A DNA stretch of 64,000 nt from Thermoanaerobaculia bacterium. GTDB lineage: Bacteria > Acidobacteriota > Thermoanaerobaculia > Gp7-AA8. The notes under the pieces were generated by a model. It did not search any database and was not told the origin of the DNA. It saw only the letters and a list, made by a program, of their open reading frames with translations. Below are positions 28,926 to 30,842 of this stretch, piece after piece. Position numbers and translations under genes: made by a program. Location of the stretch: positions 6,872 through 70,871 of the forward strand of contig JAXDIO010000154.1 in assembly GCA_034663965.1 (NCBI GenBank), read 5' to 3'. Each line of letters starts with the position of its first letter. Within the stretch, counting starts at the first letter, position 1.

Positions 28926-29501
28926 TCATACATAACGAAAAATACTCGCCGGACTCTGCGCCAGTTCTGGATACGCTTTTGGCCAATACGCGAAGAATAA
29001 GCGCTTCATGGATTGCGAATCCGGAAAGGTCGCCGCTCCGAAGTTCGGATCGAACATCTTCAGAGCGTTTACGGTGCAGAACGCGATCTCATGTCCGGAT
29101 CCCTCGCCTGGATCGTCGAAGCCCACGAGATAGTAGCCCGGCTTGGCGCAGAGGAAGAACCAGAGTTTTTCCCAATTCACGCCATTCTTGAACCAGAAGA
29201 TCCCGTCCGGGCGCAGAGCGTGGCTTCTTAGAAATATCTCGGTGTTCTCCCACGACTTTCCCTTGTGTTGTTGCTCGGCCAACCAGCTGATCTCCTCCAG
29301 TTGGATGTCCTGGTTCGGCCGTGGCGTGCCGGATTGGAGCAGTTTCTGATTTCTCAGCCACACCGTGCTGATCGCGCGGCAACCACCTCGGCCCATATAG
29401 GCACGAGTGCCGAAGCTCTCCGTTTGATCGAATCTGACGACCGTTGCGCCGACGTTCTCCGCGCCCGTTTCGAACTGCTCATGCGTCAGTGGCATGGTCA
29501 C
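28926..29501 (-). CDS. papain-like Cys-His-Asp protein, paralog 3 (YopT/C58-like G-x-C-x3-S-x2-W motif)
   Basis: 191 aa. The motifs GGCRAISTVW (Cys), GHEIAFCTV (His) and KMFDPNFG (Asp) are present. The C-H spacing is about 106 aa and the H-D spacing about 14 aa. It is the last gene of the PAAR-methyltransferase-papain operon. Confidence 0.6.
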   Translation of the reverse strand: MTMPLTHEQFETGAENVGATVVRFDQTESFGTRAYMGRGGCRAISTVWLRNQKLLQSGTPRPNQDIQLEEISWLAEQQHKGKSWENTEIFLRSHALRPDGIFWFKNGVNWEKLWFFLCAKPGYYLVGFDDPGEGSGHEIAFCTVNALKMFDPNFGAATFPDSQSMKRLFFAYWPKAYPELAQSPASIFRYV

Positions 29502-30454
29502 ATTCTAGGGCGCGCCGTCACGATGTGCACGGCGTACTCCATTGTGCTCCGATCGTGCAGGCGCAGCCGCCAGGGAACGGACTGCTGTTCGGAGACGATC
29601 TGCAATCCCACTTCTTCGAGCATGCGGCGCAGTACCGGCTCCGAGGCGCCGTGATGAGGGCCGCGCTGGGAGTGGCCGCCGAGCCACTGCTCGACGGGCG
29701 TCGCGGACGTTGACCAGTCGTACGGCGTTGCGATAACCGCTGTCCCGTTGGGACGCAGAATTCGTGCGATCTCCATTAGCGCATCATGCGGAGAGGAGAG
29801 GCAGTCGATGACGTTGATGCTCTGCGCGTAGGCGAACGTCGCGGGGGCGAAGGGAAGGTTGGCGGCGTCGCAGCACCAGAAGTCGGCCAACTGCGAGCCG
29901 GCCACCTCGCGCTCTTCGCGATCGTAGACCAGCCCGACGCGGCGCCGCGCGTAGCGCATCCGGCCCTGCCGCAACGCGGATGAGGCAATGCGAAGCATGG
30001 CGAAGTTGAAATCGACACCGACGGTCAGATGCTCTTTCGCCAACGCGAAGGTACTCGTACCGACCGCGCAGCCGATATCGATCGACGGACCGTCAGGGAT
30101 GACGTCGAACGACAGCGGCGGAGAGGCGGCGTAGATTCCCGCGTGCTGCCGCTGTGTGTCGTACGCCGATCCTGCGCCGAGGACGTCGCCGATCAGGCTC
30201 TCGATCTCCGGCGAGAGATCGTCGCGTATCAGCACCTGCAACGGATTGGCGGACAGCCAGGCGCGGATATTGGCTACGAAAATCGGGACGGCGTCGATGA
30301 TCGGGTACTCGCGCAGGCAGTCGGCGTTCGTGCAGGCGGCGATGCCTTCGACGATGTCGTCGTCCATTTCGCGGACGACGGTTGTCATGGCTACCGGTGC
30401 GCTGTGGCAGACGACGCAGAGAGGTCGCAGCGCCTCGAAGTGTCCACGCCGCAC
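29498..30454 (-). CDS. SAM-dependent methyltransferase with N-terminal Trm112-like zinc ribbon
   Basis: The N-terminus has CVVCHS...CTNADC. A methyltransferase fold follows (SIDIGCAVGTS, DFWCCDAANLPF, LRPNGTAVIATPYDW). It overlaps the downstream gene by 4 nt. Confidence 0.75.
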   Translation of the reverse strand: MRRGHFEALRPLCVVCHSAPVAMTTVVREMDDDIVEGIAACTNADCLREYPIIDAVPIFVANIRAWLSANPLQVLIRDDLSPEIESLIGDVLGAGSAYDTQRQHAGIYAASPPLSFDVIPDGPSIDIGCAVGTSTFALAKEHLTVGVDFNFAMLRIASSALRQGRMRYARRRVGLVYDREEREVAGSQLADFWCCDAANLPFAPATFAYAQSINVIDCLSSPHDALMEIARILRPNGTAVIATPYDWSTSATPVEQWLGGHSQRGPHHGASEPVLRRMLEEVGLQIVSEQQSVPWRLRLHDRSTMEYAVHIVTARPRM

Positions 30455-30458
30455 GCGC

Positions 30459-30842
30459 TCACCCTCCGATCATGACGGTGACGCAGCCGGGCGGAAGGAT
30501 CTTGCCGACCGGTCCGGGGATCGGCGCCACGCATGAGGTGTGTGCGCTCATGTCGTTCGCGCGCGCGGCCGGCATGTTGCCAATGAGCACCGTCGCCGAG
30601 CCGAGCGCGATCATGCCCGGCCCGCCGGGAACGCAGCCCGGAAGCGTGCACGGCGCGGTGGTGTCGGTGAGGCGCGCGGCCGGCTGGCCGCCGATGAGCA
30701 CCGTGAATTCGCCCATGATGATGGCCAGCGGCAGGGCGGGATGCGCCGACGGCGTCGGCACCGGCGCGGGTGGATGGATGGGCGCATGGCAGTGCGGCGA
30801 ATCCTGCCGAACCATGTCGCCGACTCGCGCTGCGCTGGGCAT
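30459..30842 (-). CDS. PAAR-repeat T6SS spike-tip protein
   Basis: The start was trimmed to MPSAARVGDM, a typical PAAR N-terminus. Repeats TVLIGGQPAARLTD, TVLIGNMPAARAND and a final VTVMIGG are present. There is no C-terminal extension. Confidence 0.85.
   Translation of the reverse strand: MPSAARVGDMVRQDSPHCHAPIHPPAPVPTPSAHPALPLAIIMGEFTVLIGGQPAARLTDTTAPCTLPGCVPGGPGMIALGSATVLIGNMPAARANDMSAHTSCVAPIPGPVGKILPPGCVTVMIGG

Follow-up and report, generated by a model that had tools for sequence, protein, structure and literature searches.

The subject of this report is a three-gene operon in a type VI secretion system (T6SS) cluster of a Thermoanaerobaculia bacterium (Acidobacteriota), contained in a stretch of 64,000 nucleotides (nt) of contig JAXDIO010000154.1 (assembly GCA_034663965.1, positions 6,872 to 70,871) that is referred to below as the window. 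This T6SS cluster, with 64 % GC, begins with a core of partial tssM, tssA, tssB, tssC, hcp, tssE, tssF, tssG and clpV (125-12702; Pfam), and after the core comes an effector-rich stretch in which Pfam recognizes an SLT lytic transglycosylase, a C58-like protein, a PKMT-type methyltransferase, peptidoglycan-binding proteins, a DUF4123 adaptor, a TIG/phospholipase-D protein and vgrG. The operon in question lies on the minus strand, where genes for a PAAR protein (30842-30459), an S-adenosylmethionine (SAM) methyltransferase (30454-29498) and a C58 protease (29495-28926) are tightly coupled and run towards vgrG. Both in the window and in relatives, the PAAR gene is encoded together with vgrG and T6SS core genes. 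As set out below, the first two genes are a conserved pair, and the third is a newcomer beside them. The features of the locus are as follows.

30459-30842, minus strand: PAAR spike-tip protein, extension-less, 127 amino acids (aa) (Pfam PF05488, 3e-10)
30729-30800, minus strand: His/Cys/Pro-rich, family-specific loop of the PAAR protein, aa 15-38, SPHCHAPIHPPAPVPTPSAHPALP (conservation in 81 PAAR sequences)
30461-30466, minus strand: Shine-Dalgarno-like GGAGGG within the 3' end of the PAAR gene, 7 nt before the methyltransferase GTG at 30454 (read from the sequence)
29498-30454, minus strand: class I SAM methyltransferase with predicted fused Trm112-like zinc ribbon, 318 aa (Pfam, TIGR04345)
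30281-30454, minus strand: predicted Trm112-like four-Cys zinc ribbon, methyltransferase aa 1-58 (invariant Cys, homologue labels, 6zxw_H profile match)
29501-30103, minus strand: catalytic domain, methyltransferase aa 118-318, with motif I IDIGCAVGTS and the signature TPYDW...TPVEQWLGGHSQRG common to OvoA/OvsM (alignments, invariant columns)
28926-29495, minus strand: stand-alone C58 (YopT-type) cysteine protease, 189 aa (Pfam PF03543, 7.9e-7)
26851-28908, plus strand: vgrG (TssI) spike, convergent on the operon (Phage_GPD 1.2e-88, Gp5_trimer_C, Phage_base_V)
30880-31377, plus strand: MORN-repeat protein, divergent from PAAR (Pfam MORN_2, 1.9e-13)
31381-31821, plus strand: SPOR-domain protein, downstream of the MORN gene (Pfam SPOR, 6.2e-17)

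A first-pass annotation, made from the sequence alone, had described an extension-less PAAR gene, a Trm112-ribbon methyltransferase gene and a papain-like gene in this order, at these coordinates and with these domains, as one T6SS spike-associated operon convergent on vgrG, and that description holds, in keeping with the tight coupling and the vgrG/T6SS context. So does the 4-nt gap that it placed between the first two genes, which reads GCGC. The GGAGGG motif, 7 nt before the methyltransferase GTG and still within the PAAR gene, implies that the two genes are translationally coupled. A consensus scan of the operon interior found no intrinsic terminator and one weak promoter-like site only. 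The 4-nt overlap proposed for the methyltransferase and protease genes, which supposed a protease start at GTG 29501 (191 aa), has to be revised; since all homologues begin MPL..., the start is probably ATG 29495, with the protease then 189 aa long and separated from the methyltransferase TGA by 2 nt.

The PAAR-methyltransferase pair across phyla

A scan for relatives of the methyltransferase, in which each species was represented by one genome, gave 155, and the best 80 of them, chosen by methyltransferase similarity, were kept. Directly upstream of the methyltransferase gene, 77 of these 80 species-representative genomes encode the same 127-aa PAAR protein (55-98 % identical), and the spacing between the two genes is estimated at -11 to +9 nt in 71 of the 80 loci. 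The pair occurs in at least seven phyla, namely Acidobacteriota, Planctomycetota, Verrucomicrobiota, Gemmatimonadota, Desulfobacterota, Myxococcota and Pseudomonadota. The reverse search, with the PAAR protein against a plasmid collection, gave two matches, both with the methyltransferase gene next. Homologues at 90, 76 and 59 % identity have the layout of the window (PAAR, a few nucleotides, methyltransferase, convergent on vgrG, with MORN and SPOR genes divergent upstream) and no protease, and the convergent arrangement with vgrG is kept in Thermoanaerobaculia relatives. T6SS markers lie within 6 kb of the pair in at least 42 of the 80 loci, a count obtained with acidobacterial queries, whose sensitivity is low in distant phyla.

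Beyond the Acidobacteriota, the pair keeps its company with the secretion apparatus in varied settings. In Aureimonas sp. AU20 the pair, WP_061978012 and WP_061978013, heads a structural operon (PAAR-methyltransferase-fha-tssJ-tssK-tssL-tssM) that stands opposite tssH-hcp-vgrG-tssA-tssB-tssC. Between that strain and the window, identity is 70 % for PAAR, 54 % for TssC, 54 % for ClpV, 48 % for TssB, 35 % for the methyltransferase and 33 % for VgrG, PAAR being the best conserved of the cluster's proteins. In Planctomycetota, which have a fused TssB-TssC, identity falls to 26-31 % for TssC but is still about 45 % for the methyltransferase and about 75 % for PAAR. In the window, the G+C content at third codon positions (GC3) is 0.86 for the PAAR gene, 0.81 for the methyltransferase gene and 0.80-0.86 for core genes, against 0.69 for the protease gene. 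Taken together, gene order and sequence comparison show an ancient two-gene module in the T6SS clusters of seven phyla, composed of the 127-aa PAAR protein and a predicted Trm112-ribbon methyltransferase that is translationally coupled to it. The first-pass annotation had seen the methyltransferase as inserted between spike and effector; the polarity is the reverse, the PAAR-methyltransferase unit being present in 77 of 80 genomes and the protease being the insertion.

The PAAR protein (ATG 30842, TGA ending at 30459) carries no toxin extension and has three PAAR motifs, SAARVGD, QPAARLTD and MPAARAND. It scores 40.6 bits against Pfam PF05488 (cut-off 27) and 41.6 bits against NCBIfam T6SS_PAAR_dom, below the cut-off of 124. 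With the canonical PAAR proteins VCA0105 and c1882 (PDB 4JIV and 4JIW) it has in common the three motifs, the small size, the lack of an extension and the T6SS/vgrG context, and its PDB matches are to those structures (4JIW, E 1e-6; 4JIV, E 1e-5), with the alignment starting at residue 38-40. In the first blade, this family has a segment of 39 residues versus 19 in canonical PAARs, and the extra loop of about 20 residues is SPHCHAPIHPPAPVPTPSAHP. Its stretch SPHCHAPIHPP...HP is invariant in the subfamily, and ten loop residues (P16, H17, C18, H19, H23, P24, P29, H34, P35 and P38) are invariant in all 81 PAAR sequences. Unlike canonical PAARs, the window protein also has a C-terminus that is longer by about 13 residues, its subfamily is 65-78 % identical between phyla, and a dedicated methyltransferase nearly always follows it. 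By these sequence features, the PAAR of the window belongs to a divergent, very highly conserved subfamily. Its loop is a candidate methylation or docking site, and PAAR a candidate substrate of the methyltransferase.

The methyltransferase has class I SAM methyltransferase domains (Pfam PF08241, 9.6e-13), preceded by a predicted zinc ribbon in which C13, C16, C41 and C46 are invariant in 14 homologues. The ribbon matches the profile of a 60-aa chain (6zxw_H, E 1.9e-5), and several homologues carry PF03966 (in some cases faintly) or have been named 'YbaR (Trm112 family)' by JGI; the window protein has no PF03966 match at E 0.1. Its best NCBIfam match is ovoA_Cterm (TIGR04345, 1.9e-26; next family, 8e-10), and its best PDB matches are OvoA (8khq, 7e-22), OvsM (9bxh, 1.5e-21) and OvoM (9bxl, 7.5e-19), with the next at 1e-10, such that imidazole N-pi-methyltransferases outrank the next matches in PDB and NCBIfam by 11 to 16 orders of magnitude. 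The SAM-binding motifs IDIGCAVG, GVDFN and CCDA and the C-terminal TPYDW...WLGGHSQRG align with OvoA and OvsM and are intact. By sequence comparison, then, the closest characterized relatives of the methyltransferase are the ovothiol/ovoselenol imidazole N-pi-methyltransferases. What it has in common with the OvoA C-terminal domain, OvoM (9bxl) and OvsM (9bxh) are the class I fold motifs and the (T/S)PYxW...TP...W(L/I)GG segment; unlike them, it has a predicted N-terminal Trm112-type zinc ribbon and is tied to a PAAR gene rather than to a thiol/selenol-histidine pathway, and its substrate is therefore probably different from theirs. OvsM N-pi-methylates 5-selenohistidine and refuses free histidine (bioRxiv 10.1101/2024.04.10.588772). 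No sulfoxide or selenoxide synthase partner of the OvoA/OvsA type is present in the window. In Thiodictyon, about 9 kb separate the pair from one FGE/EgtB-family (SUMF1/EgtB) gene; the hint of ovothiol-like chemistry that it might offer was rejected as a coincidence, since neither the window nor any of the other 84 loci has a counterpart. A segment of about 15-45 residues between the ribbon and motif I (DHY..GSA..LLDRAL.L..) is missing from the window methyltransferase (around aa 110-125) and its closest relatives, and present in all more distant members of the family and in OvsM/OvoA.

Several further genes recur around the pair. A MORN gene adjoins it in 23 of 80 genomes, including those of a Desulfobacteraceae member (L046), a Rhodospirillaceae member (L069) and a gammaproteobacterial metagenome-assembled genome (L084), and a SPOR gene is kept beside it in relatives and in L046. 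The PAAR and MORN start codons of the window are divergent and 37 nt apart (30843-30879; 36 nt in L009 and L010), so that the promoters must sit within coding sequence; no sigma-70-like site was found in the gap. Class-B B12-radical-SAM enzymes are encoded beside the pair in 12 of 80 loci (L029, L032, L033, L036, L040, L044, L046, L076, L080, L084, L090 and L092), and the best NCBIfam matches of such a neighbour (e.g. L046:7068-8357), which are the RiPP enzyme ApyD and the MCR glutamine C-methyltransferase, are all below curated cut-offs; in Desulfobacterota this neighbour often comes with an uncharacterized 136-aa protein encoded directly upstream of PAAR. In six of 80 loci, from planctomycetes of the Rhodopirellula/Stieleria group (L043, L053, L054, L060, L062 and L064), a parvulin peptidyl-prolyl isomerase is encoded directly upstream of PAAR (e.g. 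L062:5136-5498); PAAR there is proline-rich, and the same clusters encode the fused TssB-TssC sheath protein (L062:2110-3645). Genes for tetratricopeptide repeat (TPR)-methyltransferase fusions, a third kind of methyltransferase in these islands, occur beside the pair or vgrG in Thiodictyon (L121:13611-14963) and a Thermoanaerobaculia relative (L012:11100-12620).

The C58 protease, its slot and other papain-like genes

The third gene of the operon encodes a protease that scores 29.4 bits against Pfam PF03543 (Peptidase_C58; cut-off 23), with the His/Asp half only aligned, and 21 bits against the YopT family TIGR01586 of NCBIfam, below its cut-off of 52.95. The profile of its family matches PfhB2 (6u8t, 1e-7, residues 10-170), CteX and AvrPphB (1ukf). 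Its triad, Cys41/His137/Asp151 (codons 29381-29379, 29093-29091 and 29051-29049), follows the same Cys-His-Asp order as in YopT, AvrPphB and PfhB2, and among 23 family members Asp151 is invariant and Cys41 and His137 are at least 90 % conserved. Unlike known C58 proteases, it is a minimal 189-aa domain without the N-terminal type III secretion system (T3SS)/chaperone region. Clustering at 50 % identity leaves this small family with 117 clusters, 20 of them with E <1e-10; most members are stand-alone proteins of about 190 aa.

The company kept by the protease homologues is of a different kind from that of the pair. Thirty-two loci were inspected, of which 24 are from metagenome contigs and about a dozen have informative flanks; none has a methyltransferase beside the protease gene, and Pfam finds no methyltransferase domain in ten immediate neighbours of protease homologues. 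The closest relatives sit outside secretion loci, and some, among them that of Pseudomonas sp. HS6, stand by themselves: the Pseudomonas sp. HS6 homologue (55 % identity) is encoded between recR and ybaB, one of 56 % identity follows a glyoxalase gene, and one of 65 % identity is near a CesT/YbjN-like chaperone gene, with no methyltransferase neighbour in any of the three. Two genes after the 65 %-identical homologue is the gene for that YbjN/CesT-like protein, of the T3SS-chaperone type (L007:1266-1664). There are hints that close relatives of the protease may use another secretion route. Two distant homologues come directly after clpV-hcp (L113 and L115), which supports a role as T6SS effector.

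In the window, the protease is encoded beside vgrG and PAAR, the setting expected of T6SS cargo. Its stop codon (28926) and that of the convergent vgrG (28908) are 17 nt apart, with no open reading frame (ORF) between them, and no cognate immunity gene was found beside it. In this it resembles the YopT-like protein that the T6SS2 of Vibrio coralliilyticus secretes without an immunity gene (PMC11371242). On present sequence evidence, the protease is plausibly a lineage-specific candidate T6SS cargo effector. The idea that PAAR brings an effector stands as far as the protease as plausible cargo is concerned, and the paired role with the methyltransferase that went with it was not borne out. In a sister strain, represented by three assemblies and 99.1 % identical at the nt level over 11 kb, the protease (L002:1681-2250) carries Cys41Arg (window codon 29379-29381) and PAAR has synonymous changes only; the sister allele looks like a naturally inactivated effector.

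The slot between the methyltransferase gene and vgrG was surveyed in 18 Acidobacteriota relatives, mostly Thermoanaerobaculia. In about two thirds of them the interval to the vgrG stop is 12-390 nt (in several genomes 12-28 nt) and contains no credible gene and often a long hairpin. The remainder of the survey includes occupied slots: a 478-aa calpain-family protease (L013, 7013-8449; Peptidase_C2, NQMGDCWFLASL) beside a methyltransferase 90 % identical to that of the window, an Endonuclease_NS_2 protein (L019), a PIN toxin-antitoxin pair (L081) and unrelated genes (L015). The calpain-like protein is a different papain-clan effector in the same landing site as the C58 protease. In the protease-free methyltransferase-vgrG spacers of relatives there were no C58 remnants (best E 0.43). 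The survey shows the predicted protease to be a recent lineage-specific insertion into a variable slot, and the atypical GC3 of its gene agrees with this. Some spacers contain long, perfect or near-perfect inverted repeats, e.g. GTCATCCTGAGC...GCTCAGGATGAC (L009:8951-9237, L020:1176-1285, L022:6972-7115 and L086:7002-7109), which may act as terminators in both directions or be REP/MITE-like elements that mark the slot.

The first-pass annotation had counted three papain-like paralogues in the window and had seen the second of them coupled to another methyltransferase. The genes concerned are the following.

14398-15405, plus strand: paralogue 1, a 335-aa C58-like protein with a large insertion (C58-family hidden Markov model (HMM), E 6e-6, N- and C-terminal segments)
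17282-17884, minus strand: 'paralogue 2', a Ceg10-like Cys-His-Asp protein of about 200 aa (AF2 model, HMM, hhalign)
15688-17289, minus strand: PKMT-like methyltransferase (MethyTransf_Reg and PKMT winged helix; Pfam)

Paralogue 1 is related, matching the C58 profile with the E-value given above and Pfam PF03543 at 4.8e-4, below the cut-off. 'Paralogue 2' went undetected as a paralogue, and its candidacy as a C58 homologue was rejected, the C58 HMM missing 17282-18094 and hhalign giving a probability of 3 %. That ORF really encodes about 200 aa, with a start near 17884, and has no sequence match in PDB. Its AF2 model (pLDDT 81) is closest to the Legionella Dot/Icm effector Ceg10 (TM 0.52) and also resembles vasohibins and arylamine N-acetyltransferases, which have a Cys-His-Asp papain/transglutaminase-like fold; on this model, 'paralogue 2' is papain-like at the fold level only and is not a demonstrable paralogue. 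The motifs AGNCxEMA, PDHxFVIIGR and CDPW are invariant in it. As for its coupling, there is an 8-nt overlap with the PKMT-like gene, which is kept in a 75 % relative (L118) and lost in L117 and L119; the supposed parallel to the C58 protease fails as well. Homologues of the PKMT-like protein (of the Rickettsia protein-lysine methyltransferase type) are encoded near vgrG in about ten related T6SS loci after different toxins; in L012 the gene follows unrelated eCIS_core/EndoU toxins. Directly upstream of vgrG (20314-26818) are genes for a DUF4123 adaptor, a 419-aa peptidoglycan-binding protein and a protein of 1495 aa that combines 11 TIG repeats with a phospholipase D domain; together they probably form a phospholipase D effector set loaded on VgrG.

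Possible roles of the methyltransferase

The usual picture of PAAR proteins is one of passive, zinc-stabilized sharpening cones and adaptor platforms, and we know of no enzyme dedicated to them. The explanation that we favour, with a probability of roughly 0.45 for the whole, is that the operon holds two unrelated layers, in which the methyltransferase would mature PAAR and the protease would be an independent cargo. In the first layer, the methyltransferase would dock on nascent PAAR and methylate it, with an imidazole nitrogen of the SPHCHAPIHPP...HP loop as the most plausible site, and the methyl group may tune metal binding, folding or the tip surface before PAAR caps VgrG. In the second, the protease would be loaded as cargo on PAAR/VgrG or in Hcp and, because it has no immunity gene, would probably act on eukaryotic grazers, functionally independent of the methyltransferase. 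In favour of maturation, the further PAAR neighbours of other phyla, the radical-SAM enzymes and parvulins, likewise belong to enzyme classes that modify or fold proteins. Histidine methylation of this kind has analogues. METTL9 is a protein histidine N-pi-methyltransferase acting on HxH motifs, which favours the small 'ANGST' residues at position x and whose assays used Cys-free peptides (PMC7873184), and CARNMT1 N-pi-methylates the histidine of C3H zinc fingers, besides being a small-molecule (carnosine) enzyme (PMC12275196). Both are 7-beta-strand methyltransferases that act on metal-binding histidines, and PAAR would offer an invariant H-C-H; the likeness is one of working principle, and homology is not claimed. 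The DUF4123, Eag and DUF2169 adaptor-cargo modules are a second point of comparison, genes beside spike genes serving the spike there as may be the case here. Those known adaptors are non-enzymatic chaperones that come with variable toxins and immunity genes, whereas the PAAR partner here is a conserved and, to judge by its motifs, apparently active enzyme without an immunity gene.

Several observations count against this explanation. Three of the 80 methyltransferase homologues are truly without PAAR. The methyltransferase does not reach the equivalog cut-off of TIGR04345 (93.1 versus 170 bits), its closest characterized relatives act on free 5-thio- or 5-selenohistidine and not on proteins, and its AF2 model, from a 14-sequence alignment, has a pLDDT of 46.5, too poor to view the pocket. 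The invariant His and Cys of the PAAR loop may simply be Zn ligands, which methylation would be expected to disturb. The Cys41Arg allele of the sister strain shows the protease to be dispensable. The place directly after PAAR is the classical one for a cargo effector, and the neighbours that might belong to a maturation pathway are few, radical-SAM enzymes being found in 12 of 80 loci only and parvulins in six only. The most specific form of the proposal, in which an OvoM-like, Trm112-fused methyltransferase matures the spike tip by N-methylating histidine in the HCH...H...H loop, with a radical-SAM enzyme or parvulin assisting in some phyla, is doubtful.

That classical position, together with the tight coupling to an extension-less PAAR gene, is what recommends the main rival reading of the same pair, in which PAAR carries the methyltransferase as a conserved cargo effector that methylates a protein histidine or a small molecule in target cells, with the protease as a second, newer cargo. 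A module moving as a unit would fit the occurrence of the pair beside greatly differing T6SS cores (Planctomycetota TssC, 26-31 %), the family-specific PAAR loops could serve as a docking surface, and the MORN protein, a neighbour in 23 of 80, might conceivably act as an immunity-like partner. No immunity gene is, however, linked to the pair with any consistency; most phyla lack MORN, and NCBIfam gives no antitoxin-type label to the MORN neighbour, whose immunity role is a suggestion from position. Neither toxin-typical polymorphism nor domain shuffling is seen: the 120 methyltransferase homologues listed are all 301-390 aa, and none is fused to PAAR, Rhs or VgrG. Codon usage of the methyltransferase gene is core-like, its bearers span very different lifestyles, including obligate syntrophs, and in Aureimonas it is inside the structural operon ahead of fha-tssJKLM. 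The missing immunity gene, the missing toxin-like polymorphism and the core-operon position in Aureimonas weigh against cargo, and we regard it as unlikely.

Less probable again is a role as a T6SS accessory enzyme that acts on VgrG, Hcp, a baseplate protein, a regulator or a small molecule, with the adjacency to PAAR serving co-expression only. Strict synteny with T6SS genes would agree with it, as would the fact that the closest relatives of the methyltransferase are small-molecule enzymes, and the recurrence of further methyltransferases in these islands (PKMT-like in about ten loci; TPR-methyltransferase in L012 and Thiodictyon) suggests a broader methylation theme. Against this, the adjacency is specific to PAAR and measures a few nucleotides even where the other neighbours all differ, and no ovothiol-type partner was found apart from the one FGE/EgtB-family gene in Thiodictyon.

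The proposal made in the first-pass annotation, that the methyltransferase is a modifier, co-effector or immunity protein of the papain-like protease, mirrored by the second pair, is very improbable. The methyltransferase and protease genes are indeed adjacent and coupled in the window and in the 99 %-identical sister strain, and a second Cys-His-Asp protein does overlap a PKMT-like gene in a pair that persists in one 75 % relative. That annotation had expected papain-like homologues elsewhere to be consistently next to methyltransferases and had held the pairing coincidental should they not be; none of 84 methyltransferase loci has a C58 gene and none of the 32 C58 loci, about a dozen of them with informative flanks, has either methyltransferase, so that by its own reasoning the pairing is coincidental. 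The methyltransferase family is moreover far older and wider than the protease family, 'paralogue 2' is not homologous to the protease, and the PKMT pairing is inconstant in the way described above. With no co-occurrence across genomes, immunity to the protease or its modification is very unlikely as the task of the methyltransferase; a role as co-effector is less unlikely. That a housekeeping methyltransferase came to lie beside PAAR by chance, for which the good, housekeeping-like conservation of the family might speak, has a negligible probability and is refuted by synteny in 77 of 80 genomes and at least seven phyla with overlapping or nearly overlapping frames.

Significance for T6SS spikes

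Full-text searches of the literature returned no account of a methyltransferase linked to PAAR. The two-gene module is a new form of T6SS spike organization, and the novelty lies there rather than in the protease, as a T6SS YopT-like effector has already been reported. For effector mining, the slot between the pair and vgrG provides a rule, being a landing pad for exchangeable effectors (C58, calpain-like, nuclease). Aureimonas sp. AU20 is a cultured carrier of the pair, which makes the question of its function directly testable. A pairing that has lasted from Acidobacteriota to Planctomycetota and Proteobacteria points either to a new step in the maturation of the T6SS spike or to the most widely conserved T6SS cargo enzyme yet, and either outcome changes the annotation of spike genes, as the expectation of a toxin gene after PAAR does not hold here. 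If spike-tip methylation is true, the pair would be an unrecognized, phylum-spanning T6SS accessory module, and it would represent the first post-translational modification system of a contractile-injection spike, together with a bacterial protein-histidine methyltransferase.

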